Below are positions 1 through 35,455 of a stretch of DNA of 64,000 nucleotides, piece after piece. The translations under genes and the position numbers were made by a program. Numbering within the stretch: the first letter of the stretch is position 1; the number at the start of each line of letters is the position of its first letter. Source of the DNA: Patescibacteria group bacterium (GTDB taxonomy: Bacteria; Patescibacteriota; Minisyncoccia; UBA6257; 2-01-FULL-56-20); the NCBI GenBank assembly GCA_038063755.1, contig JBBTUL010000012.1, positions 572 through 64,571 on the forward strand, written 5' to 3'. Under the pieces are notes generated by a model. It saw only the letters and a program-made list of their open reading frames with translations, had not been told where the DNA came from and made no database searches.

Positions 1-700
1 GTCCCCGTCCGACCTGCGCGTTGTATATGTTGCGCCAAAGGGATCAGGTTGGTCGCTTTTTACCCTGGACACGAAAAGTAAAACCGCAAAACCGCAGAGC
101 CTTTCTTCTTTTTCTCACGAAGGACTCTTTCCTTCTTGGATTTTTCCGGACAAGATTTTTCTCTCCGAAAAGCCCTCTGCCCTTGTCGACACTTCGGTTT
201 TTAGCTTTGACCTCGCCAAAAAAATTCTTTCGCGAATAGTGCAGGGTCGTGGAGCGCTCGCGCTATGGGACAGGGACGCAAGCAGGGGGATTGTTTTTGT
301 TGGAAACGCGCGCGGAGGGGGATCTCTTGCTCTTGTAGACAGCAGCGGGAATATTGAAAAGCAGTTTTCTTTTGTCACGCTTCCTTCAAAGTGCGCCTTC
401 GAAACAAAAACGCTTGGTCCACAGGCGGGAGTAAAGGCAAAGAAAAAATCTTGGCTTGTTTGCGCCGTTCCTCGCGACAGAAGAGCCTTCGAATCCTCCA
501 TTCTCCCCGATGCGTATTTTCAGAAGGAGCTCCGCACCGAAGACGGCTTTTACCGCATCGACATCGAGACCGGAACGATTACCACGCTTTTTGACGAAGA
601 GGCGAGCTCTCTCGACGCAGCAGACGTGAAAACAAAAAACGGAAGGGTTTATTTCCTAAACCAATACGACAATTTTCTTTATAGCATCTCTTTGGAGTAG
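1..700 (+). CDS. hypothetical protein, 5'-truncated at window edge (beta-propeller-like Gly/Asp-rich repeats)
   Basis: Reading frame 2 is open from nt 2 through the stop at 698-700. The ORF-track entry 239..700 (GTG start) is the tail of this longer frame. Motifs such as GSGWSLFTLD and GALALWDRDASRGIVFVGN suggest a beta-propeller. It is followed by a hairpin terminator. Confidence 0.35.
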   Translation, partial: SPSDLRVVYVAPKGSGWSLFTLDTKSKTAKPQSLSSFSHEGLFPSWIFPDKIFLSEKPSALVDTSVFSFDLAKKILSRIVQGRGALALWDRDASRGIVFVGNARGGGSLALVDSSGNIEKQFSFVTLPSKCAFETKTLGPQAGVKAKKKSWLVCAVPRDRRAFESSILPDAYFQKELRTEDGFYRIDIETGTITTLFDEEASSLDAADVKTKNGRVYFLNQYDNFLYSISLE

Positions 701-712
701 CATCATAAAAGT

Positions 713-734
713 AAAAGCCCCGAAAGGGGCTTTT
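713..734. terminator. bidirectional rho-independent terminator between convergent genes
   Basis: aaaagcccc-gaaa-ggggctttt: a perfect 9-bp stem with a GNRA-like loop and A/T runs on both sides. It sits between the stop of the plus-strand ORF (700) and the stop of jag (733). Confidence 0.5.
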
Positions 735-1203
735 ACTTTTCTTCTTCGGGAGGTCCTAGCGGAGGCTTCTCCCCGTCTACGAGGCGGATCGTTACGCACC
801 TGCTCTTTCCTACCCCGTCGCTTACCGTCATGACGTCCGGATGCGCCGCAAGCTCGACGTGTATAAGGCGTCTCTCGTAAGAATTCATCGCCGGCAAAGA
901 GACCGCTTCTTTTGTCGCCCTTACCTTCCGTGCCGCAGCCCTTGCAAGCTCTCCCAGAAGCTTCTCTCTTTCTTTGCGATAGTTGTTCACATCAAAAACC
1001 ATCGGGTGTTCTCCCTCTTTTTGCGCAAGAACCTGCGAAAGATGGTTCAGCGCGTCTACGAGCTCAGGAAGGTGTCCTTGAAATGCTGGTGGTTGATTAT
1101 ATATAAAAACACTGCCGTGGTGATGCTCCAGGTCAAGCTCAACTGTATGCTCCCCGAATCCCATTCCTTCAATTGTCTTTTTTATGAATTGATCCCACTG
1201 CAT
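733..1203 (-). CDS. jag: Jag/KhpB-like R3H-domain RNA-binding protein
   Basis: C-terminal R3H signature (ERRLIHVEL) and a KH-like region. Position immediately downstream of yidC is the conserved yidC-jag arrangement. Confidence 0.7.
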   Translation of the reverse strand: MQWDQFIKKTIEGMGFGEHTVELDLEHHHGSVFIYNQPPAFQGHLPELVDALNHLSQVLAQKEGEHPMVFDVNNYRKEREKLLGELARAAARKVRATKEAVSLPAMNSYERRLIHVELAAHPDVMTVSDGVGKSRCVTIRLVDGEKPPLGPPEEEK

Positions 1204-1906
1204 GCTGTGATAAAGATTCTTTATTTACGATCATCTGTTGCACCACCGAGACGAGCGACGAGACAAACCAGTAGAGAGGAACTGCCGCAGGTAGGCCGAA
1301 AAAGATAACCACGGTCATAAGCGGCCCCACGAGAACCATCGATCTCGCAACACGATCCATAGAAGATGCGCTGTTTTGCGATTGCGCTGCAAGGGTGATC
1401 TTTCCCTGGACGTACTGAGCCACGGCCGCCGCGACCACCATTAGAATACTTCTCTCGTTTAAATTAATCAACCCGAAGAGAGTCGCGTTTATTCCTGCCG
1501 GGACATCAACAAATGAATATAGATCCAAAATCGGTATAGGGCTTAGTCCGCGAAGAAAAATTCTGTAGAGCGCGATAAGTATTGGCAGTTGGACAACAAG
1601 GAGGATCATCCCTGAAAATGGATTCACTCCCGCCGTCTTATAAAGAGCCATCACTTCTGTTGTTTGTTTTTTTGGGTCTTTTTTGTACTTCTCCTGTAGC
1701 TCTTTCATTTTTGGCTGTAGCTCCTTCAGCTGTTTTTGATGTCTAAGGCTTTTTTGAAAGATCGGAAACAAAAGAAGCCGGACCAGCACCGTAAGAAGGA
1801 TTATTGCAACCCCAAGGTCCTGAAATCCGATCGTATTATAAAGCCCAACCAAAAGATTAATAAGCGGGCGATGAAGGGTTTCGTTGAAAAATTCACCAAT
1901 AATCAT
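1169..1906 (-). CDS. yidC: membrane protein insertase YidC (short Oxa1-type)
   Basis: Five predicted TM helices, a YidC/Oxa1 core and a Lys-rich C-tail. Located between rnpA and jag. Confidence 0.8.
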   Translation of the reverse strand: MIIGEFFNETLHRPLINLLVGLYNTIGFQDLGVAIILLTVLVRLLLFPIFQKSLRHQKQLKELQPKMKELQEKYKKDPKKQTTEVMALYKTAGVNPFSGMILLVVQLPILIALYRIFLRGLSPIPILDLYSFVDVPAGINATLFGLINLNERSILMVVAAAVAQYVQGKITLAAQSQNSASSMDRVARSMVLVGPLMTVVIFFGLPAAVPLYWFVSSLVSVVQQMIVNKESLSQHAVGSIHKKDN

Positions 1907-2229
1907 TTTTTTCTTTTTGCTTCGCCAAAAAGAGCATACACCTCTTCTTTAAGGGCGGCAAACGAAAGACTTGTTGCTCCTTTTTTTGCTATCACACAAA
2001 CATCAAGCCCGAGCATGTCTTCTGGATCAAAAAGGGCTACAACTTGCCTTTTTAGACGATGCCGGTCTACTGCGCGCTTTGCTGCTTCTTTTGAAACAAC
2101 CACCCCAAGTCTTCCGGGGGTTTTCTCCGTTCTCTTAAAAAGGAGCTTTAGGTTTTTAGAGCTCGCTCCCCCATGAATAGTCTCAAAAAAAGATGAATCG
2201 AGCGGAGTTCGGCGAATCCTAGGAAGCAT
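1903..2229 (-). CDS. rnpA: ribonuclease P protein component
   Basis: 108 aa basic protein with RnpA-like motifs (GRLGVVVSKEAAKRAVDRHRLKR). Immediately downstream of rpmH, a conserved synteny. Confidence 0.8.
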   Translation of the reverse strand: MLPRIRRTPLDSSFFETIHGGASSKNLKLLFKRTEKTPGRLGVVVSKEAAKRAVDRHRLKRQVVALFDPEDMLGLDVCVIAKKGATSLSFAALKEEVYALFGEAKRKK

Positions 2230-2244
2230 ATTTCCCTTTTTCCG

Positions 2245-2379
2245 TTATAGCGCCAGCCTCTTGCGCCCCTTCGCTCTTCTCCGTTTAAGAACCTTTTTTC
2301 CGCCGGGCTTCCTGCGTCTTGCAATAAACCCGTGCGTTCGCGCCCTTTTCCTCTTCTTTGGTTGATATGTTTGCGACAT
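2245..2379 (-). CDS. rpmH: 50S ribosomal protein L34
   Basis: Not in the ORF track because it is under 60 aa. Manual translation of the minus strand gives [44 protein letters not shown], a textbook L34 sequence. It is upstream of rnpA as in most bacteria. Confidence 0.85.
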
Positions 2380-2433
2380 ACAACCCACTGTATCACCTTT
2401 CTCTTTTTTTGTAAAATTTTTTCTCTGAAATAT

Positions 2434-2453
2434 TTATTCACAGCAAATCCACA
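2434..2453. promoter_or_regulatory. two adjacent DnaA-box-like 9-mers upstream of dnaA
   Basis: TTATTCACA (2434-2442) and AAATCCACA (2445-2453), versus the consensus TTATCCACA. They lie in the rpmH-dnaA intergenic region. Confidence 0.4.
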
Positions 2454-2473
2454 GAAAAGATTCAAAAACTTTT

Positions 2474-3865
2474 TTGACTCCTTTCGAATTACCCGTACAA
2501 TGGAACCTAATGAATCTCGAAGAACTTTGGCAGCTCACACTAGGCGAAATGGAGGTTCAGCTTTCGAGGGCTAACTTTGCAACGTGGCTAAAAAGCAGTC
2601 GTCTTTTAAACAAAGACGACGGCGTAATGTATGTTTCTTTGCCGAACCACTTCGCCCGAGAGTGGGTCGAGAATAAATATCACAAAAACCTCCTTGGTAT
2701 CATCCGTGGATTTGATCCTTCGACTAAAAAAATTGAGTTTGTCGTTCGCCAAGAACATCAGGAGCCACCTCCCGAGAAAATAACTTCGAAAGAATTTGAA
2801 AAATTTGAAAACCGCATCGACTTTCAGTTTAAAGTTGATGGAGATAGTAATTTAAATTCTCGCTATACAATGGATTCTTTCGTTGTTGGCCCGTCGAACG
2901 AGCTTGCTTTTGCGGCAGCAAGCGCAATCGTTCAAGATGTTGGAGTAAAGTATAATCCTTTCTTTGTATACGGTGGAGTTGGCCTGGGGAAAACGCACCT
3001 TATCCAAGCGATCGGAAACGGTATTCTCGAAAAATATCAGAAAAAAATTCGTCCTCGTTATGTTTCTTCGGAGAAGTTCACGAGCGACATTGTTTGGGCG
3101 CTTCGTAATAAAAGAATCGATGATATAAAAAAGAAATACAGGGACTGCGATGTCCTTATTATCGACGACATTCAGTTTATTAGCGGGAAAGAAAAAACAA
3201 TGGAAGAATTTTTCCATACCTTCAACGCTCTTTATGAAAACAATAAACAAATTATTATTTCTTCTGATCGCCCGCCTCAATCTCTTGCAACGCTCGAAGA
3301 TCGCCTGCGCTCTAGGTTTGAGGGCGGTCTCATCGCCGACATAGGATATCCTGAATATGAAATGCGCCTCGCTATTATTCGCAGCAAGCTCCAGGAAAAA
3401 AACCAGGTTTTAACCGATGAAATTATTGATCTTATTGCTCGTCGAGTTAAGAAAAATATCCGAGAGCTTGAGGGGGTTTTAAATAAAATAATCTTTTCTC
3501 AAGAAACAAAAAAACGCCCCCTTACAGAAGAAGAGGTGGAAGAGGTTATCAAAAAATCGTTGAAAAACTTCTCGCAAAGGGTCTCCGATGACCAAATATT
3601 AAAAGCAGTAGCCGACTTTTTCCGGGTTGCTCCTGAGGACCTTATGCGGCGGATTCGGAAGAAAGAAATCGTTGAACCCCGTCAAATCGCCATGTATCTT
3701 CTTCGGGATATCCTCGATATGTCATACCCATATATTGGGGAAAAGATGGGGAGAGATCACACTACCGCAATTCACGCTGTTGAGAAAATAACCCAGGAAA
3801 TCAATAAGAATTCTTCTTTGAGCCAAAAAATCAATCTTATCAAGGATTTAATATACAGAAATTAG
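2474..3865 (+). CDS. dnaA: chromosomal replication initiator protein DnaA
   Basis: AAA+ Walker A (GGVGLGKTHL), a sensor/box VII region and a C-terminal DnaA DNA-binding domain (RQIAMYLLRD...GRDHTTAIHA). Confidence 0.95.
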   Translation: MTPFELPVQWNLMNLEELWQLTLGEMEVQLSRANFATWLKSSRLLNKDDGVMYVSLPNHFAREWVENKYHKNLLGIIRGFDPSTKKIEFVVRQEHQEPPPEKITSKEFEKFENRIDFQFKVDGDSNLNSRYTMDSFVVGPSNELAFAAASAIVQDVGVKYNPFFVYGGVGLGKTHLIQAIGNGILEKYQKKIRPRYVSSEKFTSDIVWALRNKRIDDIKKKYRDCDVLIIDDIQFISGKEKTMEEFFHTFNALYENNKQIIISSDRPPQSLATLEDRLRSRFEGGLIADIGYPEYEMRLAIIRSKLQEKNQVLTDEIIDLIARRVKKNIRELEGVLNKIIFSQETKKRPLTEEEVEEVIKKSLKNFSQRVSDDQILKAVADFFRVAPEDLMRRIRKKEIVEPRQIAMYLLRDILDMSYPYIGEKMGRDHTTAIHAVEKITQEINKNSSLSQKINLIKDLIYRN

Positions 3866-3992
3866 GAACCTTTAATACTCTTCTTATAAACAGGTATAAC
3901 CCGGAAAAAGAACCATTCCATAAAGATATCAACAGTTCCCATAGTACAGTAACAACAGTAATAATATATTAACTAATAGTAATAATAGGAGA
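3866..3992. other. AT-rich dnaA-dnaN spacer; candidate oriC DNA-unwinding element
   Basis: A 127-nt intergenic stretch with very high A+T (aacagtaataatatattaactaatagtaataata) between dnaA and dnaN, where oriC lies in many bacteria. Confidence 0.35.
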
Positions 3993-5111
3993 ATGAACTT
4001 TGTTATTTTAAGAGATAAATTAAAAGAAGGGCTGGATATAGTTTCTCATTTCGTAAATGACGGAAATAATCTTCCCGTTTTAAAAAATATTCTCGTCCGA
4101 GCAGACGAAAATAAAATAACTCTTTCGGCAACAAATCTTGAAAGCGGAATTTCTTTTTATATTCCTTGCAAGGTAATTCAACAAGGATCGTTTACAGCTC
4201 CGGCAAATATTTTAAGCCAAGTTATAAATAATATTCAACAAGACAAAATAAACGTCGAACAGAAAAACAGTTTTTTTGAAATAAAAACAGAAAATTATCA
4301 AGCTTCGATTCAGGGAATTTCTTCGGAAGATTTTCCGATTATTCCAAGAATTAAAAACATAACGACCTCGCTCGAAATAGAAGGAAAAATATTAAAAGAG
4401 GCCCTTGATCAGACAACTACAGCAACGCAGTTTTCAGATCTTCGCCCAGAATTAAACAGCATTCTTTTTTCATACGGTTTGAATAATATTACTTTCGTAG
4501 GAACCGATAGCTTTCGATTAGCGGAAAAAAAACTCCAAGAAAGCCAATTCTCTTCAAACGAGAAAAAAGAATGGAGCGTTTTACTTCCTTTAAAAACAGC
4601 ACAAGAACTTTCGAAAACTATAAAGAACGAAGGGAAAATAAAAATAAATAAAGACGAAAACCAAATTCTTTTCAAAAGCGAAAACTTCGAAATAATTTCA
4701 AGAACAATTGAAGGAGCGTTTCCTGACTACCAAGCTATAATGCCAAAACAATTTTATGCAGAAATAACTGCTTCAAGAGAAGAGTTTATTAACGCCCTAA
4801 AACTCATTGGAATAATGGCCGATTTTGGAAACGAAATTACCGTTCGTATTTCTCCTGGGAAGAAAGCGATCGAGCTTTTTTCGAAAAGCAAGAACCAAGG
4901 AGATAATACATATGTTCTTTCAGCAAAGATTGACTGTAAGAAAGACGCGATAGAAACGAGTTTTAATTGGAGATTTTTACTCGAAGGGCTAAAAAGCATT
5001 TCCGCAGAAGAAATATTTTTTGGAATAAACGAAGAAAATAAACCAGCAATACTGCGTGCCCCACAAAAAGGATCGTATTTTTATATCCTTATGCCGATTC
5101 TTAAGGGATAG
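3993..5111 (+). CDS. dnaN: DNA polymerase III beta sliding clamp
   Basis: 372 aa, three-domain clamp architecture, directly downstream of dnaA. Confidence 0.9.
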   Translation: MNFVILRDKLKEGLDIVSHFVNDGNNLPVLKNILVRADENKITLSATNLESGISFYIPCKVIQQGSFTAPANILSQVINNIQQDKINVEQKNSFFEIKTENYQASIQGISSEDFPIIPRIKNITTSLEIEGKILKEALDQTTTATQFSDLRPELNSILFSYGLNNITFVGTDSFRLAEKKLQESQFSSNEKKEWSVLLPLKTAQELSKTIKNEGKIKINKDENQILFKSENFEIISRTIEGAFPDYQAIMPKQFYAEITASREEFINALKLIGIMADFGNEITVRISPGKKAIELFSKSKNQGDNTYVLSAKIDCKKDAIETSFNWRFLLEGLKSISAEEIFFGINEENKPAILRAPQKGSYFYILMPILKG

Positions 5112-5112
5112 A

Positions 5113-7752
5113 TCAGTAGAGGATAGAAAAGGATTTTCCAGTGCTTCCAGACTCATCTTCCGCTTCAACCGAAAGGATGTTTTGCGGAAAAAGAGGAGCA
5201 GAAAAAGAAAAACGGAGTTCATAGCTTGTTCCAAACGAGCCAAGGAAGGATTGTACTAAGCGCTCGTTAAAATAAACGCGAATAGTCTTCATGGGAGCCG
5301 AGCTTTTTAAGTTAGCGACAATAGAAACCGGATTTGTGTTCGTAAAGCTTCCCTCGGATGGATGGACAACCGTAATCTGCGGAGGAAAAAGGGGTTTTTG
5401 AGAGGCGAGGATGTCCGAGGCAGAATCCTGCTGAACAGGAGAAAATATTCCGAGATTGTCTTTTGCCCACGAAAGAACACCGAATTCCCAACGCAAGAAT
5501 TGAGAATCAGAGGCCGGATTTTGCGGAGGGGGGCCAAGAGGATTTTTTTTATCGACAAAATAAAGAATCGAATGAACCTCGCTACCCTCAAGGTAGTTTC
5601 CCCGCAAAATATTTTTTTCTGGAAAAACAGGATCCGGTTTTGAAAAAATTTCTGAAGGAACCGTCTTTAACGCCTCTCCAAAAAACTTACTCCAAGTTGG
5701 TATCGCGGCGAGAATGCTCGATCCTTGTTTTTGCATTGCCGAACTGTCGTTGTTTCCCGCCCAAACGCCCACAACGAGAGATGGGGTATATCCAACCGCC
5801 CATGCGTCAACGTAGTCGTTGCTTGTTCCTGTTTTTAGCGCAACCTCGTGATCCGAGAAAACCGTAAGCGCAAGACTGCTTGGAGAAAGAAGTCCGGAGC
5901 GCGCTTCAACGTCGGTAAGGATGCTGTTTACTAAGCGAGGAAGCTGCGGTTCCAAAACGATCTTTTCTTTGTTTATGTAAGACTCCAAAACTTCTCCATT
6001 TCGATCCCGAACTTCCATGACAAAGGATTGTTCGCGAAGGACGCCCTCTTGAGAAAGAACAGAATATGCTTTTACAAGATCGACAAGGCGAACTGCCCCA
6101 CCTCCCAAGACCAGGGAGAGGCCGTATCGCTCAGGATTAGTGAGCGTAGCAAGACCCAGGCTGTTCATGAGGCGCACCGTGTCGGATATTCCCGCAAGAT
6201 ACAGAACCTTAACCGCGGGGACGTTTATAGATTGCGCCAAGGCATTACGGAAAGAAACGGGGCCGCGAAATTTCTGATCAAAGTTTTCAGGGTGGAAACA
6301 TTGCGGGGGATCAGAGCTGAAATCCGGCTTTGCCGGACACGAAGAGATCGAAGAGAACTCTGTTGGAACATCAAAGACAACGGTTTCCGGAGTATAACCC
6401 TTCATGAACGCATTTAAATAAACAAAGGGCTTGAGAGATGATCCTGGCTGGCGCAGGCCCTGGAGGGCGACATTAAAATTTCCTTCATTTTTTATATCAA
6501 AATAATCTCGCGAACCAACAAGAGCAAGGATCTGGCCAGTCTTGGGATCTTCCGCGACAAGAGCAGCATTCTTCCCTTTGTAGAGGCGTTCGTTGTTTTC
6601 AGCCCCTTCTTTTACGGTTTTTTCGGCGATCTCCTGCAAATTCCAATCGAGCGTGGTAATAACGCGAAGTCCTCCTTTTTGCACTGCATCTTCTCCGTAC
6701 TTCTGTACCAAATGGTCTTGTACGGCGAAAACAAAATGAGGGGCTTTAATGCTTTGTGTTGATTGCGGCATGAAACGAACCGGTTCCGAAAGAGCAGATT
6801 TATATTGCGCATCCGTTATAAAGCCAAGATCTTTCATTTTTCTAAGAACGACATTAGCCCTTCTTAAAAGCTCGCTTGCTCGGGATCCCCAAGGAGAGTA
6901 ATAGCTTGGCGCCTGCGGAAGGGCTGCAAGAATTGATGACTCCCGAAGAGATATTTCGTGGACCGGCTTTCCGAAATAGGCCCGACTAGCCGCCTCTGCT
7001 CCGTAAAGGGTTGAGCCATAAGGGATTTCGTTTAAGTAAAGCTCAAGGATCTGATCTTTTGTGTAATTCTCTGAAAGGCGGACAGCAAGCATAAGTTCCC
7101 TGAGTTTTCGAGAGACGGTTTTTTCCGGACTCAGAAAAGCATTTCTGGCCAGCTGCTGGGTTATGGTAGAGCCGCCCTGACGAATTTCTCCGTGGCGCAG
7201 ATTTACGACGAAAGCCCGAACGATACCACGCAGATCGAATGCCGGCTCCGTATAAAACTTTTCGTCTTCAATCGCGATAGTCGCCTGTTCGAGATGGTCG
7301 GGTATTTCAACAAGAGAAGCAACGGTGCGCCTTTCTCCGGCGTTAATTTCGTACAAAAGAACCTCCCCGGTCCTATCATATATCTTTGTAGACTCGCTTA
7401 CTTCTCGCGCCCTGATCTGCTCAATCGTCGGAAGGGAGCGAAAAAGGAAAATCAAAAAAAGAGAAAAAGCAAAGAAAAAAACAAAGAAAGGGAAAAGAAA
7501 GAACCGATTGAAATTCTGCCCTCGACGAAGAAAAGAAAAAAAGCGACGCATGTTCCAATTATGAACAAACGCGCCAGGAAAGTCTATTTCCTGGCGCGTT
7601 TGTTCTATGGATAAAGCGAAGCTTTTATTCCTCGCTCTCTTCGGTGCCGAGAGGCTCATCGACCTCTTCTTCAAGAGGTTCTCCGATATCGTTCTCGCCG
7701 TCGTCAACGCCGGCGTCTCCCCCTGGAGGGGTAACACCCTCTTCTTCGTCAC
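5113..7752 (-). CDS. class A penicillin-binding protein (PBP1A-type, glycosyltransferase + transpeptidase)
   Basis: GT51 motifs (GGSTITQQLARN, RKLRELMLA) followed by a transpeptidase domain and a long Ser/Thr-rich C-terminal extension. The true start is probably the internal Met at 7551 (MRRFFSFLRRG, just before the TM helix), which would remove the overlap with the 7625-7891 ORF. Confidence 0.85.
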   Translation of the reverse strand: MTKKRVLPLQGETPALTTARTISENLLKKRSMSLSAPKRARNKSFALSIEQTRQEIDFPGAFVHNWNMRRFFSFLRRGQNFNRFFLFPFFVFFFAFSLFLIFLFRSLPTIEQIRAREVSESTKIYDRTGEVLLYEINAGERRTVASLVEIPDHLEQATIAIEDEKFYTEPAFDLRGIVRAFVVNLRHGEIRQGGSTITQQLARNAFLSPEKTVSRKLRELMLAVRLSENYTKDQILELYLNEIPYGSTLYGAEAASRAYFGKPVHEISLRESSILAALPQAPSYYSPWGSRASELLRRANVVLRKMKDLGFITDAQYKSALSEPVRFMPQSTQSIKAPHFVFAVQDHLVQKYGEDAVQKGGLRVITTLDWNLQEIAEKTVKEGAENNERLYKGKNAALVAEDPKTGQILALVGSRDYFDIKNEGNFNVALQGLRQPGSSLKPFVYLNAFMKGYTPETVVFDVPTEFSSISSCPAKPDFSSDPPQCFHPENFDQKFRGPVSFRNALAQSINVPAVKVLYLAGISDTVRLMNSLGLATLTNPERYGLSLVLGGGAVRLVDLVKAYSVLSQEGVLREQSFVMEVRDRNGEVLESYINKEKIVLEPQLPRLVNSILTDVEARSGLLSPSSLALTVFSDHEVALKTGTSNDYVDAWAVGYTPSLVVGVWAGNNDSSAMQKQGSSILAAIPTWSKFFGEALKTVPSEIFSKPDPVFPEKNILRGNYLEGSEVHSILYFVDKKNPLGPPPQNPASDSQFLRWEFGVLSWAKDNLGIFSPVQQDSASDILASQKPLFPPQITVVHPSEGSFTNTNPVSIVANLKSSAPMKTIRVYFNERLVQSFLGSFGTSYELRFSFSAPLFPQNILSVEAEDESGSTGKSFSILY

Positions 7753-7891
7753 TCAGGGAAAGACCCTGAAGGGCAACATCGTATTCTTGCATTGTTATAT
7801 CTTTCAGGATACGACCTTTCGTTTCTTGTTCTCGGAATTGTTTATGAGAATCAATTGTGGTGAAGTATATGCGAGCAAACGTAGCTGTCAA
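7625..7891 (-). CDS. small hypothetical protein with strongly acidic C-terminus
   Basis: 88 aa with a DEEEG...EEEVDEPLGTEESEE tail. Its start overlaps the ruvC stop by 4 nt (ATGA), which suggests translational coupling. Confidence 0.4.
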   Translation of the reverse strand: MTATFARIYFTTIDSHKQFREQETKGRILKDITMQEYDVALQGLSLSDEEEGVTPPGGDAGVDDGENDIGEPLEEEVDEPLGTEESEE

Positions 7892-10225: not shown

Positions 10226-10513
10226 TAGAACAAAAGAAGGGCAGAAAATAAACAGCCCCGAAGTGGGGATGTTCTGCCGATAGGCGGCTCAAAACTGGGG
10301 GCGAATTCCGGTCAGGGAATCAAGTCTCTTCTCGTAGATTGAAAGAGGTTAGAAATATTTCGAGGATGAGTCTCGTCGAGACCAGACCGTCCTTAGAACT
10401 AGAAATAATTCCCGCGCCCCCAGATTTGAACCGAGTATCAACTGAAAGCATCTTATCATAAAGAAATGCAAATGTCAATACCCGGAAGCCGTTAGAAAAT
10501 AAAGACTTTTTAC

Positions 10514-23593: not shown

Positions 23594-23665
23594 GCGCCCG
23601 TAGTTCAACGGATAGAATGCATCCCTCCGAAGGATGAGATTGAAGTTCAATTCTTCACGGGCGCA
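23594..23665 (+). tRNA. tRNA-Arg (anticodon CCG)
   Basis: Manual fold: acceptor GCGCCCG/CGGGCGC, D-arm GTTC..GAAC, anticodon stem CATCC/GGATG with loop CTCCGAA (anticodon CCG), T-arm TGAAG-TTCAATT-CTTCA, discriminator A. CCA is not encoded. Confidence 0.8.
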
Positions 23666-30937: not shown

Positions 30938-30967
30938 TTGACACAAAGCGCATAGCCGTGTTATAAT
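30938..30967 (+). promoter_or_regulatory. near-consensus sigma70 promoter (TTGACA-18-TATAAT)
   Basis: ttgacacaaagcgcatagccgtgttataat, followed by a structured ~65-nt 5'UTR (ggctgg...ccagcc) and an AGGAG RBS. Confidence 0.55.
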
Positions 30968-31033
30968 TTATCCTAGCAGGCTGGAAACTGAGGCCTAATG
31001 AAAGGCCCAGGTCACCCAGCCAAAGGAGCAGAA

Positions 31034-31354
31034 ATGAGAAGCAAGGGAGCGTTTTTGATTCTCCTGGCTGTCGCGATTCTCGGCGCCGCGTGCGCCGAGA
31101 AGCCGCGCTCCGCAGACTTCGTGACGGCGAGGGTGCTGGCTATGGACCAGGGCTACGCCCTGGAAAACACGTGGATCGAGACCATGTACAAAGGTGGTCG
31201 GTGGGTTGTTGTGGTTTCAGGGGTCGCGGTAAATGTGGCTAGAATTGACGGCCGCGATATCTATTGGGCCCGCACGAATACCTGCCTTGCTCCGGTGCCG
31301 GTTCGGCGCGAGACCTTCAAGTGCAATCCCAGCCGACTCGCTCGTATGCCGTAG
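31034..31354 (+). CDS. small secreted/lipoprotein-like hypothetical protein, GC-rich
   Basis: Signal peptide MRSKGAFLILLAVAILGAACAEK, G/C-dominated third codon positions, and its own strong promoter and RBS. Confidence 0.5.
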   Translation: MRSKGAFLILLAVAILGAACAEKPRSADFVTARVLAMDQGYALENTWIETMYKGGRWVVVVSGVAVNVARIDGRDIYWARTNTCLAPVPVRRETFKCNPSRLARMP

Positions 31355-31427
31355 TGGTAGTGCATCACCCCCCGACGAAATCGGGGGCGTAGCATTTTAA
31401 AAGCGCCGCGAAAAGAAAAACAGCGAC

Positions 31428-31951: not shown

Positions 31952-32303
31952 GGCAAAATGTAATCCCTATGATAGCCCAAGCCGGGCGTTTGTGCAAGAG
32001 GACGCGCCGCCGTCCGCCACCTCGTTGTTTTCGAGTACCGACTGTTCGCATGCTCCTGCGGCATGCGCCAGTCTGCGCTCTCGGCTTCGAATATCCTGCG
32101 GATGCCAAGCACTCGAAGCCTCCGAGAGCTACTCCAGAAACAACGAGGTGGTGTACGTCTGTCTTCCCGTGCGCCTACGAAAAGGCCTGCCGCGCGCCCC
32201 AAGGGAGGGTAAGACTTGGCCAAGCGGCCCTGGAGCGCACTCCCGTGGGTGTGCGGCAGGCAATATTGTCTCAGAACGGAAAGACGGAAAGGGCGGTGCC
32301 TGC
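31952..32303. ncRNA. GC-rich, highly structured ~350-nt RNA element between infC and rpmI: candidate L20-responsive leader (minus strand) or RNase P RNA
   Basis: No credible ORF. Several long complementary segments, e.g. CCACCTCGTTGTTTTCG/CCAGAAACAACGAGGTGG (32028-32044 / 32134-32150), GCTCTCGGCTTCGA/TCGAAGCCTCCGAGAGC, and GCATGC...GCATGC. RNase P-like strings appear on both strands: plus has AGGGTAAG, GAGCGCAC and CAGAAC..GCTTAC; minus has ACAAACGCCCGGCTTGGG, which resembles the CR-V ACAGAACCCGGCTTA. Confidence 0.4.
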
Positions 32304-32804
32304 TTACGAAGGCTTCTTGGTCGAGAGGATCTGCGTTGTAAATCCGCTGCCTCCGAAGGCGGGCTGGCTTAACACGCGATATTCTACGGTAATGAGTTTC
32401 ATGAAATCCCTTAGTTTCTGCGCCGCCCATTCCTTGTTCCGTTTCTCGCGCCCCCGAAGGCGCAAAAAAATCTCAACCGGATGTCCCTCCTCCAAAAATT
32501 TCTCGAGCTGACGCACTTTTACCGAAAGGTCATTTTGAGCCGCCTTCGCGCTTATCTGTACGCGCTTCGAACCGGTAGCTTTTTGAAGTTGGCGCTCTTT
32601 TTTTGCAGCCTTCTCTTGTTCGTAGCGGAATTTGTCGAAGCTCATGATGCGGGTAACCGGAGGCTTTGCATTCGGGGAGATTTCGATAAGATCAAGCCCT
32701 TTTTCGCGCGCAAGAGAAAGCGCCTCATCGCGCGTAAGGACTCCGAGGTTTCCTCCTTCGGGGTCGATCACGCGCACTTCAGGCGCCGTAATAGCAGTAT
32801 TTAT
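32304..32804 (-). CDS. infC: translation initiation factor IF-3
   Basis: IF3 N- and C-domains (RVIDPEGGNLGVLTRDEALSLAREKGLDLIEI...). The frame stays open upstream of the first ATG (…KINTAITAPEVRVID), so a non-AUG (AUU/AUA) start is likely, as is usual for infC. Confidence 0.8.
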   Translation of the reverse strand: MNTAITAPEVRVIDPEGGNLGVLTRDEALSLAREKGLDLIEISPNAKPPVTRIMSFDKFRYEQEKAAKKERQLQKATGSKRVQISAKAAQNDLSVKVRQLEKFLEEGHPVEIFLRLRGREKRNKEWAAQKLRDFMKLITVEYRVLSQPAFGGSGFTTQILSTKKPS

Positions 32805-32880: not shown

Positions 32881-32995
32881 AAAAAAGAGGACGAGCGGAG
32901 GATAAAAACCCGGTGTCTCAATAAAGAAGCGAGAGAGAGGATTGGTCCCCTTCGGCTTGGTTCGTTTGGTAGGCGCGCATTAGAAAAGTGTTATG

Positions 32996-33071
32996 TTCTA
33001 CTGTTTGACGATCGTCAAACAGTAGAATCCGAGAGATTAAGGTTGACACGGGGGCTGGGACGTGATAGAAT
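32996..33071 (+). promoter_or_regulatory. 32-nt perfect palindrome (operator-like) followed by a TTGACA-17-TAGAAT promoter
   Basis: TTCTACTGTTTGACGATCGTCAAACAGTAGAA (32996-33027) is a perfect inverted repeat. TTGACA at 33043-33048 and tagaat at 33066-33071 follow, then a GAGGAG RBS upstream of the 33150 gene. Confidence 0.5.
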
Positions 33072-33149
33072 GCCAAACGGCATTGCAGTCCGCGAATGGT
33101 AATCGGGAGCCTTCGTGGGCTGAAAAACAAATCCCGAGAGGAGCAAGTC

Positions 33150-33593
33150 ATGACCTGGATCCTCGCCGTAGCCCTCTTGATCGTTTCCATTTCCGGGGTC
33201 ATCGCCTCCCGGAAAAACCGGAGGGCGCTCAATCAACTCTACGCCGAGATCGCGGCGGCGCGCACCCGCCTGTTCGGCCTCAAAGAGGCCAAGGCGGTCG
33301 GACAGTACCTGGAAAACGCTGGCGACGACGCGGCGGCGGCCGTCCGCGGAGTAGTGCTCGGCGTCCTGGGATACGTGAACAACGTACCCTCCGAGCTCGC
33401 CGAGCTCAGGGCGCAGACGGAGAAGATTTGCACCTCCGAGGCCGCCAAAATCGACGGCCTGAAGGCCAAGGTGCGTCAGTTCGAGTCCGCGATCGAGGAC
33501 GCTTACACGCGTTCGGCGGATGCCGAAAACGAGCTCTTCGACACCGAGCTCGTCGCCGAGCCCTTCCTCGACGAGGAGAGTGTCGGCGACTGA
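33150..33593 (+). CDS. hypothetical membrane-anchored coiled-coil protein encoded in a very GC-rich insert
   Basis: N-terminal TM (MTWILAVALLIVSISGVIA), a helical Ala/Glu-rich body and an acidic tail. G+C is far above the neighbouring genes, which produces spurious overlapping ORFs in other frames. Confidence 0.5.
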   Translation: MTWILAVALLIVSISGVIASRKNRRALNQLYAEIAAARTRLFGLKEAKAVGQYLENAGDDAAAAVRGVVLGVLGYVNNVPSELAELRAQTEKICTSEAAKIDGLKAKVRQFESAIEDAYTRSADAENELFDTELVAEPFLDEESVGD

Positions 33594-33630
33594 CGTCCTT
33601 CCAGCACTTTGTAGTCATGTAGTCATCGAC

Positions 33631-33659
33631 GCCCGGCAATCCAGCCGGGCTCGTTTTTT
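33631..33659 (+). terminator. rho-independent terminator
   Basis: gcccggc-aatcca-gccgggc followed by tcgtttttt. Confidence 0.55.
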
Positions 33660-33757
33660 ATATACAAAAACAGACAGGCGCGCTTTGGCAATAATGTATA
33701 ATCATTTATTAGCAGGTGAATCGGTCGACACCTCGAAATGAAAAACAAAGAAACAAT

Positions 33758-34153
33758 ATGCTTTCCAAATTAAAGAATCCAGACTTAGGACTTTTTCTCG
33801 TACGCCTCGCGCTTGCGCTTGTTTTTATCGCGCATGGCTTTGGGAAGTTCGCAGACATCGCGGGAACAACTGCATTTTTTGGAAAAATTGGCCTTGCGCC
33901 GTTTTTCGTCTACCTTGTTGCCGCGGTTGAATTTGTTGGAGGCCTCGCGATGCTTCTGGGGCTTTTTACGGATGTCGCCGGAGTTGCGCTTGCACTCGTC
34001 ATGCTTTTCGCGATCATTCTCGTGAAGGGAGGAAAAGGGTTTTTCGGATTTGAACTCGATCTAACTCTTCTTCTTGCGGCTTTGGGTGTTGCAATGGCTG
34101 GACCTGGCAAATATGCGGTAAAGTGGTTTCAAAAACCACCCGCACAGGTATAA
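33758..34153 (+). CDS. DoxX-family membrane protein
   Basis: LGLFLVRLALALVFIAHGFGKF...GGLAMLLGLFT is the DoxX pattern, with 4 TM helices. A TTGGCA...TATAAT promoter lies upstream at 33685-33712. Confidence 0.7.
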   Translation: MLSKLKNPDLGLFLVRLALALVFIAHGFGKFADIAGTTAFFGKIGLAPFFVYLVAAVEFVGGLAMLLGLFTDVAGVALALVMLFAIILVKGGKGFFGFELDLTLLLAALGVAMAGPGKYAVKWFQKPPAQV

Positions 34154-35050: not shown

Positions 35051-35455
35051 ATGACCGAAAGCGGGGAAAAGTACATAAGCCTTAAAGAAGCCGCAAGATT
35101 GTCGGGTTATTCGCCGGACTATGTCGGACAGCTTATCAGAAAAGGAAAGCTCCCCGGAAAACAAATATATTCGAATATTGCCTGGGTGACGACCGAAGAG
35201 GCCATTAAAAAATACATGGAAGGATCGCTTCCCGAAAACGGAGGCGAAGCGGGAGCTCCCTGGCTAGAGCGAAAGGCGGCAATTCTTGAGAAAAAAAAGC
35301 TTTTTCGGCGGGTAACGATTTTACTAAGAGTAATTCTTAGTGCCATGATTTTTTTCGCGATAGTTCTTTTCTATGTATTTACCGCAAGCGTTGAACAGCG
35401 CCTTGAACAGCGCGCACTTCGACAGGCAGAGGTAGGCCAAGAAAAAATGAAATGA
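35051..35455 (+). CDS. helix-turn-helix DNA-binding protein with a C-terminal TM helix (membrane-anchored regulator)
   Basis: ISLKEAARLSGYSPDYVGQLIRKGKLPG is a MerR/excisionase-type HTH. The hydrophobic segment is VTILLRVILSAMIFFAIVLFYVF. Confidence 0.55.
   Translation: MTESGEKYISLKEAARLSGYSPDYVGQLIRKGKLPGKQIYSNIAWVTTEEAIKKYMEGSLPENGGEAGAPWLERKAAILEKKKLFRRVTILLRVILSAMIFFAIVLFYVFTASVEQRLEQRALRQAEVGQEKMK

Follow-up and report, generated by a model that had tools for sequence, protein, structure and literature searches.

A GC-rich membrane-protein gene and an adjacent 32-nucleotide palindrome in a groundwater Patescibacteria genome

Atypical GC content is routinely read as a mark of horizontal transfer. 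Whether that reading fits is the question raised by one locus in a 64,000-nucleotide stretch (hereafter the window) of contig JBBTUL010000012.1, a 146,617-bp contig of a groundwater Patescibacteria metagenome-assembled genome (MAG). Here a gene for a 147-amino-acid (aa) protein (ORF147; NCBI MEK7608579.1, locus tag AAB495_03290) combines a very GC-rich coding sequence with expression signals of its own, and a perfect 32-nucleotide (nt) palindrome lies just upstream of it. A sequence-only reading had taken palindrome, gene and terminator for a recently acquired module, with the palindrome as the operator of a dimeric repressor. The compositional jump and the autonomy of the unit withstood analysis, whereas recent acquisition and an operator role found no support. 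We give about an even chance to a different reading, namely that the locus holds two separate neighbours, a resident GC-rich gene that belongs to a family (33043-33659) and an independent palindrome (32996-33027) resembling repetitive extragenic palindromic (REP) elements.

On this account the gene would be a monocistronic unit with a near-consensus sigma-70-type promoter, resident though able to change position, and its GC-rich, C- or G-ending codons would be maintained by selection on the mRNA. The transcript would be strongly folded, with a leader hairpin or pseudoknot abutting the ribosome-binding site and a terminator hairpin closing the 3′ end, and folding, leader and terminator together would yield a stable, tightly controlled and highly expressed message. 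The palindrome would be one copy of a small REP-like family of hairpin-forming intergenic palindromes in Hainich Patescibacteria, with a 22-nt core and compensatory arms; some copies may double as protein-binding sites, and the family would not be a conserved control element of the gene family. Newly defined here are an unannotated membrane-protein family, a candidate leader pseudoknot and a small family of long intergenic palindromes. If the account is true, calling islands by composition could not be relied on for a class of envelope genes with strong promoters in Patescibacteria, and the results would point to selection on mRNA stability or structure in small, slow-growing cells.

Motif reading and a promoter scan placed a -35 hexamer, TTGACA, at 33043-33048 on the plus strand and an extended -10 element, TGaTAGAAT, at 33063-33071 (TG at 33063-33064, TAGAAT at 33066-33071). 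With a 17-nt spacer the promoter matches the consensus at 11 of 12 positions, and only one other plus-strand site in the window scores at least 11/12. The position of the -10 element predicts a 5′ leader of about 72 nt (33077-33149), at the end of which a Shine-Dalgarno sequence, GAGGAG (33138-33143), stands 6 nt before the ATG at 33150. The open reading frame (ORF; 33150-33593, plus strand) encodes a bitopic membrane protein with a conserved core, LFGLKEA...GVVLGVLGY, and is followed by an intrinsic terminator at 33631-33659, GCCCGGC-aatcca-GCCGGGC and a T run, whose 7-bp stem (33631-33650) is all GC. Promoter, GAGGAG, ORF, terminator and palindrome were thus all present where the sequence-only reading had put them and were non-random, forming, apart from the palindrome, a self-contained single-gene transcription unit; we also agree that no regulator gene adjoins it.

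The GC content of ORF147 is 0.642, and the values by codon position (0.66, 0.42 and 0.845) are those of a real coding sequence. Among the window's ORFs of at least 100 aa (n = 58; a non-overlapping set that takes in a few shadow frames), GC at third codon positions (GC3) had a mean of 0.503, a standard deviation (sd) of 0.066 and a maximum of 0.672, which puts ORF147, at 0.845, about 5 sd out. The claim that its GC lies far above background therefore held quantitatively; the deviation was not insignificant, nor was the gene found conserved in place with a host-like composition. In 60-nt windows, GC was 0.58-0.73 over 33160-33610, 0.52-0.53 in the leader, mildly raised (0.58) over the promoter and 0.43-0.47 past the terminator. 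The excess is limited to the coding sequence and does not extend to the whole module with its non-coding signals. The codon shift is general, towards C-ending codons for Ala, Gly, Val, Leu, Ile, Phe, Thr, Ser and Pro and also towards AAG, GAG and CAG, and was not seen in the genes for L20, L35 and IF3. An overlapping antisense gene was considered and rejected. In most members of the family described below the antisense frame in register with the codons is open, but it lacks start codons, and an open antisense frame is a by-product expected from high GC3.

A word-indexed search of 5.8 billion proteins returned only ORF147 itself. A phmmer search of 1.84 billion representatives found 11 relatives of 96-146 aa (E-values 4e-6 to 8e-4), and a profile search raised the number of relatives to 32, giving a family of about 35 unannotated small proteins that are mutually 25-45% identical. 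No close homologue was present among about 15 billion proteins, the best match being 53% identical over one third of the protein. Residues F42, G43, L44 and L73 are invariant in the alignments, and A47, A50, G71, V72, G74, Y75 and F139 nearly so. From the N-terminus, the members share a hydrophobic helix, basic residues, the invariant FGL, a near-invariant (K)EAEAA..Y, the motif A..V.GVVVGVLGYEN.V, a heptad-like region of about 50 residues and a C-terminal ..A.LF. AlphaFold2, run on a 35-sequence alignment, gave an all-helical model (mean predicted local distance difference test score, pLDDT, 92.5) with helices at residues 2-38, 44-57, 59-72 and 79-140, the membrane helix being predicted at about residues 2-20. 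As modelled, the family consists of small bitopic membrane proteins with an N-terminal membrane helix, an FGLKEA...GVLGY core and a helix or coiled coil of about 60 residues. The basic residues predict that the remainder of the protein lies in the cytoplasm (C-terminus inside), and the protein is probably oligomeric and abundant.

Profiles from Pfam, PHROGs, NCBIfam, PADLOC and PDB, and Foldseek searches against PDB and BFVD, gave no consistent match to the family. In size (about 100-150 aa), N-terminal membrane helix and long coiled coil the proteins resemble FtsB/DivIC/FtsL and the Rz-type i-spanins. Unlike these, with which no sequence or structure match was significant, the family has its own FGLKEA...GVLGY core, and its predicted C-terminus-inside topology is the opposite of that of FtsB and Rz, whose coiled coils are periplasmic. 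Locus comparisons covered 12 distinct loci (the window, L068, L069, L071-L077, L079 and L080), all of which have typical Patescibacteria neighbours (NUDIX, PMT, DUF2079, DedA/VTT, TGT, NusB, T2SSE and MreB), and two family members carry the NCBI label Patescibacteria. By these comparisons the family is one not described before and so far met only in Patescibacteria-type contexts. IMG/VR contained no family members and no copy of the palindrome core, and a phage origin was rejected. Three published gene calls in the family reach too far, into the promoter.

The GC3 excess recurs across the family. The family gene compares with the mean GC3 of its neighbours as 0.845 with 0.50 in the window, 0.86 with 0.49 in L068, 0.85 with 0.39 in L072, 0.80 with 0.45 in L075, 0.80 with 0.65 in L071, 0.74 with 0.48 in L076, 0.70 with 0.42 in L073, 0.66 with 0.43 in L074 and 0.62 with 0.48 in L069; for L077 (0.74) and L079 (0.68) the comparison is with the GC of the rest of the locus, 0.49 and 0.40. 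In 11 of the 12 loci, then, the gene is in excess (0.62-0.86 versus 0.39-0.65, with a neighbour sd of about 0.03-0.05), and across this deep divergence it stands 15-45 points above host genes. The sole host-like member, L080 (GC3 0.48), is also the most divergent. Because members only 25-45% identical have the excess in common, a single recent transfer cannot explain the anomaly, which to judge from these loci is a family trait and not a mark of recent import. One pair of loci bears on inheritance more directly. L069 and L074 share the order PMT-NUDIX-gene, with neighbours 82% and family genes 77% identical, and at identical residues the fraction of identical codons is 0.62 for the family gene and 0.63 and 0.65 for the neighbours. 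Synonymous divergence has thus kept step with that of the neighbours, which argues that the gene was co-inherited with them while GC3-rich.

To assess folding, we compared the energy of each coding sequence with that of synonymous-codon permutations, holding protein and codon usage fixed. The family had a mean z of -1.9, with 5 of 12 members at or below -2, compared with a mean of -0.6 and 3 of 33 for control genes from the same loci (Mann-Whitney p = 0.005). Folding energy per nucleotide was -0.34 to -0.48 in the family and -0.23 to -0.42 in the controls. Individual z scores were -1.95 for the window gene, -4.3 for L074 and -5.9 for L080. Since L080, which has no GC3 excess, folds most in excess, we favour strong mRNA folding as the common denominator of the family. 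Within the coding sequence, a hairpin of 8-11 bp encodes the invariant peptide RFGLKEAEA at all family loci (33270-33296 in the window), as GGCCTC-AAR-GAGGCC with TTC/GAA and CGC/GCG extensions; where L071 has the peptide GLTQA, it is encoded by GGCCTG-ACG-CAGGCC and the hairpin is kept. The hairpin is real, but its stability does not exceed what codon usage predicts (mean z -0.4), and no extra selection on it could be detected.

The leader is predicted to be structured as well. RNAfold's minimum-energy structure and a pseudoknot search gave an 11-bp hairpin, S1, pairing CAGTCCGCGAA (33086-33096) with TTCGTGGGCTG (33112-33122), whose loop holds TCGGGA (33103-33108). This loop sequence can pair with TCCCGA (33132-33137) to form a candidate 6-bp pseudoknot stem, S2, which ends 2 nt before GGAG; an A-rich third loop, aaaaacaaa (33123-33131), joins S1 to the 3′ strand of S2. 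In five leaders we had seen by eye a G-rich run in a hairpin loop complementary to a C-rich run past an A-rich linker, 5′ of the Shine-Dalgarno sequence. A search for H-type pseudoknots with a 3′ strand ending at most 11 nt before the Shine-Dalgarno sequence, scored against dinucleotide shuffles (n = 200), gave p <= 0.025 in 7 of 12 family leaders compared with 2 of 32 control genes. The window leader's score of 42 was reached by none of the 200 shuffles; the corresponding numbers were 0 for L079, 1 for L075, 2 for L072, 3 for L073, 4 for L068 and 5 for L076. The second stem reads GAGGG:CCCTC in L072 and GTGGG:CCCAC in its sister locus L073. Alignment of leaders was possible only inside the subgroup L072/L073/L076, and the window leader has the same topology with a different sequence. 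We did not use covariation statistics on aligned leaders, because MAFFT set the stems out of register and hand alignment would have been circular; the shuffle and control tests took their place.

These results are suggestive of a leader pseudoknot. The preQ1-I and SAM-II riboswitches and the rpsO/S15 and T4 gene 32 operators likewise have a hairpin, a loop pairing downstream and an A-rich third loop, and in H-type control elements the 3′ strand ends 1-7 nt before the Shine-Dalgarno sequence, as here. Unlike them, the family leaders match no Rfam model and show the feature in only 7 of 12 cases, and they lack unpaired nucleotides conserved across subgroups of the kind that line a riboswitch ligand pocket. 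Rfam models gave only chance matches on the opposite strand between 32780 and 33760 at E-values up to 10. We consider it improbable that the pseudoknot beside the Shine-Dalgarno sequence represents a new, Patescibacteria-specific class of cis-regulatory RNA.

Strong expression signals are also common to the family. All 12 genes are preceded by promoters of their own, and a scan found matches of at least 11/12 to TTGACA-16/18-TATAAT in nine; several have the extended -10 TG, and those of L071, L073 and L075, read by eye, fit the consensus less well. A GC-rich strong terminator followed all eight family genes whose downstream sequence was inspected. Within the window, the two best plus-strand promoters precede the two most GC3-rich ORFs. 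The other of these promoters, at 30938, matches at 12/12 (TTGACA-18-TATAAT with extended TG) and drives a lipoprotein-like ORF at 31034-31354 (MRSKGAFLILLAVAILGAAC...; GC 0.60, GC3 0.67, the second highest in the window). This unit (30938-31400) is likewise self-contained, with promoter, ribosome-binding site, ORF and terminator, and lies between an MGMT-like gene and rplT; the ORF is absent from the syntenic relative L045 and has no Pfam match. Near-consensus promoters also precede genes for small or secreted envelope proteins in L042 (457-894 and 1655-1975) and L036 (3786-4961), where GC3 is 0.65-0.74 and locus GC about 0.50. In these genomes, then, a GC-rich composition seems to be the sign of a class of genes with strong promoters and not of foreign DNA, and strong promoters and GC-rich codons may be generally linked in these Patescibacteria. 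High expression, a role of the structures in mRNA stability or translation, and the function of the protein are what we infer for ORF147 from these features.

The palindrome, TTCTACTGTTTGACGATCGTCAAACAGTAGAA (32996-33027), consists of two 16-nt arms that are 100% complementary, with no spacer. It occurs once in the window, where about 1.5e-5 such sequences are expected by chance per 64 kb (64000 x 4^-16), and has a GC content of 37%. The sequence-only reading had proposed looking for the palindrome elsewhere. The window holds a single site, and related copies in another Hainich MAG, H43-bin210_1, share with it a conserved 22-nt core, CTGTTTGACGATCGTCAAACAG (33001-33022). A scan of GTDB species representatives for CTGTTTGAC-N4-GTCAAACAG gave 40 loci, three of them in H43-bin210_1; most of the matches (in Limnohabitans, Bacteroidales and others) were ordinary hairpins, usually with terminator-like T runs, and were set aside as unrelated. 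Looser local scans yielded two more copies in H43-bin210_1, a variant and a degenerate one, for a total of five in the 24 kb sampled, all extragenic or at gene ends. One (L010) lies between convergent genes and overlaps a stop codon. Two (L020 and L036) lie past canonical terminators, no more than about 60 nt from contig ends, in a longer repeat with two further hairpins. The degenerate copy (L036, 5170-5205) directly follows a tRNA-Leu gene, and the fifth (L036, 5837-5874) lies between Xer-like and PaaX_M/Cas2-like genes, over a plausible TTGACG-17-TATAGT promoter.

Between these copies the arms change in pairs. The outer arms read TTCTA/TAGAA in the window and ATGTC/GACAT in H43-bin210_1, so that three of five pairs covary around the same core; within H43-bin210_1, AGTGTC/GACACT alternates with AATGTC/GACATT, again compensatory, and one copy has a paired change in the core, CTG..CAG to CTA..TAG. 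Compensatory changes in arms and core indicate that symmetry is maintained, as for an element forming a hairpin or cruciform. REP elements and bacterial interspersed mosaic elements (BIMEs) are similar in being long, hairpin-forming extragenic palindromes, present in several copies (in H43-bin210_1), mostly at gene 3′ ends beside other hairpins, with pairing kept by compensatory changes between copies. The present family differs from them in its very low known copy number, in that the window copy is perfect, loopless and placed in a divergent 5′-5′ spacer, and in that the conserved GTAG head occurs in the window copy only. A 10-codon mini-ORF (ATG TTC TAC TGT TTG ACG ATC GTC AAA CAG TAG, 32993-33025) spans the palindrome, probably by coincidence, and no convincing ribosome-binding site precedes it.

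Several observations weigh against a resident gene under selection on its mRNA beside an independent REP-like palindrome. The family occupies about seven genomic contexts among the 12 loci, and two members adjoin serine recombinases or an IS30-like gene, so the family gene does move. In the L069/L074 comparison, synonymous conservation is no higher than in the neighbours, so that this pair gives no direct sign of selection on the codons. The folding excess of the window gene is moderate (z = -1.95) and two members have z above 0. Five of the 12 leaders lack a significant pseudoknot, the pseudoknot sequences differ from one subgroup to another, and the pattern had been noticed by eye before the search was designed. 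High expression of ORF147 is suggested by promoter quality alone. The palindrome has only one copy in this genome's 64 kb, and two PaaX-like genes with related sites upstream favour protein binding at some copies at least.

A serious rival makes use of the first of these points. Repeated transfer from an unsampled high-GC reservoir, followed by amelioration, would fit the range of GC3 from 0.86 down to 0.48, and the roughly seven contexts and the two cases of adjacent recombinases are in keeping with it. In L073 (5001-6686) a family member truncated at 96 aa abuts a large serine recombinase gene. In L068 (1625-5871) another follows an IS30-like transposase gene, and about 2.7 kb beyond it, again upstream, lies a gene for a large serine recombinase. 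Mobile elements may frequently adjoin or target the family gene.

An alternative that we regard as unlikely keeps the gene native and makes the palindrome an operator or activator site for the promoter at 33043, bound by a dimeric regulator encoded elsewhere. The dyad is perfect and its centre lies about 66 bp upstream of the predicted transcription start; upstream activators and the alpha subunit of RNA polymerase bind at about this distance. A candidate regulator would be a PaaX-like protein (winged helix plus Cas2-like domain) recognising dyads centred on GACG-N2-CGTC. The variant copy in H43-bin210_1 overlaps the TTGACG-17-TATAGT promoter directly upstream of a PaaX_M/Cas2-like gene, and a second PaaX-like gene (L064) has CTGACGATCGTACAG and CACGACCGTCAC just upstream, an association that rests on two loci and was found after the fact. 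Against this, no PaaX-like gene is encoded in the 64-kb window (an HTH_17 protein is encoded at 35051-35455), and a near-consensus promoter should need no activator. Between the palindrome, which ends at 33027, and the -35 element lie 15 bp, and the palindrome overlaps neither the core promoter nor the transcription start. Neither the palindrome nor its GACGNNCGTC core (GACG-N2-CGTC) occurs within 350 nt upstream of the 11 other family genes. Four of the five H43-bin210_1 copies lie beside terminators at gene 3′ ends, and paired arm changes within one genome fit the maintenance of a hairpin better than that of a fixed half-site. We therefore do not favour the operator role that the sequence-only reading had assigned to the palindrome. 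In the palindrome, CTGT-N14-ACAG recalls a LexA-type box (N8 in E. coli), a reading that we rejected.

Even less probable in our judgement is the original proposal, that the block from palindrome to terminator is a recent foreign module from a high-GC donor with the palindrome as a dimeric-repressor operator. It can point to the 5-sd deviation in GC3, to autonomous expression signals, to varied family contexts with recombinases sometimes adjacent, and to the locus upstream of infC, which is not kept in relatives with 56-68% IF3 identity. An 8-nt direct repeat, AGGCGCGC, also flanks palindrome and gene (32971-32978 on the left, 33676-33683 on the right); as an insertion border we rejected it as probably due to chance, the estimated chance expectation being a few percent, and no terminal inverted repeats surround the block. 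Against recent acquisition stand the same anomaly in 11 of 12 members within their own genomes, in Patescibacteria-type contexts only, and the L069/L074 pair, which diverged together with its neighbours. The excess ends at the boundaries of the coding sequence, other strongly promoted genes for small envelope proteins in such genomes are likewise GC3-rich, and no donor-like or otherwise close homologue was found anywhere searched, viral contigs included. The promoter is of the same type as at other Patescibacteria loci. The palindrome is AT-rich, lies away from the core promoter and is not shared by the rest of the family; the window encodes no Xer-type tyrosine recombinase or integrase, and no tRNA gene lies near the locus. 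A recent transfer of the gene unit is thus not favoured. Phage morons and ORFan islets are similar in being single autonomous genes with a composition far from that of the host and a position that varies by lineage. In contrast to these, the deviation here is common to deeply diverged homologues (25-45% identity) in different hosts and confined to coding sequence, one pair diverged with its neighbours, and no phage or donor context was found.

Equally doubtful is a reading in which the gene is very highly expressed and owes its high GC3 to codon optimisation for translation, with mRNA structure playing no part and the leader structures incidental. Near-consensus promoters in at least nine of 12 family genes speak for it, as do the pairing of the window's two strongest plus-strand promoters with its two most GC3-rich ORFs, the similar cases in L042 and L036, and the strong preference for C-ending codons. 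But the ribosomal-protein and IF3 genes of the window lack the bias, the inclusion of AAG, GAG and CAG looks like a general push towards GC and not like matching to tRNAs, and L080 combines the strongest excess folding (z = -5.9) with no GC3 excess.

A last reading, in which the palindromes are core recombination sites through which an Xer-like recombinase moves palindrome-plus-gene cassettes, among them the window's palindrome with ORF147, integron-like without an integron integrase, would explain the many contexts of the family gene, with the L036 locus as its template, and is in our view highly improbable. That locus (5078-6826 of L036; H43-bin210_1, JBBUGM010000009.1) comprises the tRNA-Leu gene, the degenerate palindrome, the PaaX_M/Cas2-like gene (5227-5817, minus strand), the second palindrome and, 65 nt from it, the Xer-like tyrosine recombinase gene (5939-6826, minus strand). 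The arrangement resembles a cassette of one gene with a palindrome on either side, next to a recombinase and a tRNA gene.

Other known elements were compared with the palindrome. It can be read as two 8-bp arms around a 6-bp centre, CGATCG, as in the difH/XerH and difSL/XerS systems, and one H43-bin210_1 copy lies near an Xer-like gene. Unlike dif, however, it is multicopy in H43-bin210_1 and origin-proximal (29 kb from dnaA), in a window without a recombinase. A dif/Xer core site and an integron attC site fit poorly, as the window has no Xer-like gene and, in the case of dif, the palindrome is not a single terminus-proximal copy. The half-site TGTTTGAC resembles the parS half-site TGTTTCAC, but the palindrome has G for C in each half and 4 extra central bp, and was rejected as parS; the best window match to the 16-bp parS consensus, TGTTNCACGTGAAACA, has 3 mismatches, lies elsewhere and is at chance level. 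A restriction site at the centre was dismissed since CGATCG is not conserved, the H43-bin210_1 copies having CGGTCG or CGGCCG.

The locus lies about 29 kb from dnaA. On one side it adjoins infC, rpmI and rplT (minus strand), on the other a plus-strand DoxX gene (33758-34153). The origin region occupies the start of the window (1-5200), which holds dnaA (2474-3865), dnaN (3993-5111) and, on the minus strand, jag (R3H), yidC and rnpA. Cumulative GC skew reaches its minimum near 4.5 kb, and an AT-rich stretch (GC 0.32-0.37) is located at about 3.5-5 kb. A 3.6-kb contig from Hainich well H41 (L001) matches the window at 99.86% identity and is identical throughout the module, and comes from the same population. 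Relatives with 56-68% IF3 identity keep rplT-rpmI-infC, one of them also the genes beyond rplT, and the other side of infC is not syntenic. A synteny test for insertion was accordingly set aside, as no gene order is shared beyond infC and the borders of an insertion cannot be defined. The infC ORF is listed at 32304-32777 with a GTG start; the true start is probably the ATT at 32790-32792, five codons upstream, from which the sequence reads ATT ACG GCG CCT GAA GTG. An unusual start codon (ATT) is typical of IF3 genes.

The spacer between infC and rpmI (31952-32303, about 350 nt) has a GC content of 0.58 and is open in several frames, and in the relatives L045 and L049 there is no space for such a segment. 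Candidates for its role are a structured leader through which rpmI-rplT would respond to L20 and some other non-coding RNA; a permissive Rfam search of the spacer gave nothing credible, and at gathering thresholds the whole window yielded one tRNA only (23594-23665). Elsewhere in the window, two perfectly paired 19-nt arms (GAACAAACGCGCCAGGAAA...TTTCCTGGCGCGTTTGTTC, 7563-7605) make up a hairpin with a loop of 5 nt in the annotated 5′ part of the PBP1A ORF (5113-7752, minus strand). A TTGACA-16-TATACT promoter at 7891 lies upstream of it, and PBP1A may in fact start only past the hairpin. Another promoter, TTGACA-17-TAAGAT with extended TG on the minus strand, has its -35 element beginning at 10478, in the spacer (10226-10513) that separates the T2SSE ATPase gene from ruvB. 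No ORF follows it, and its product may be a small RNA.

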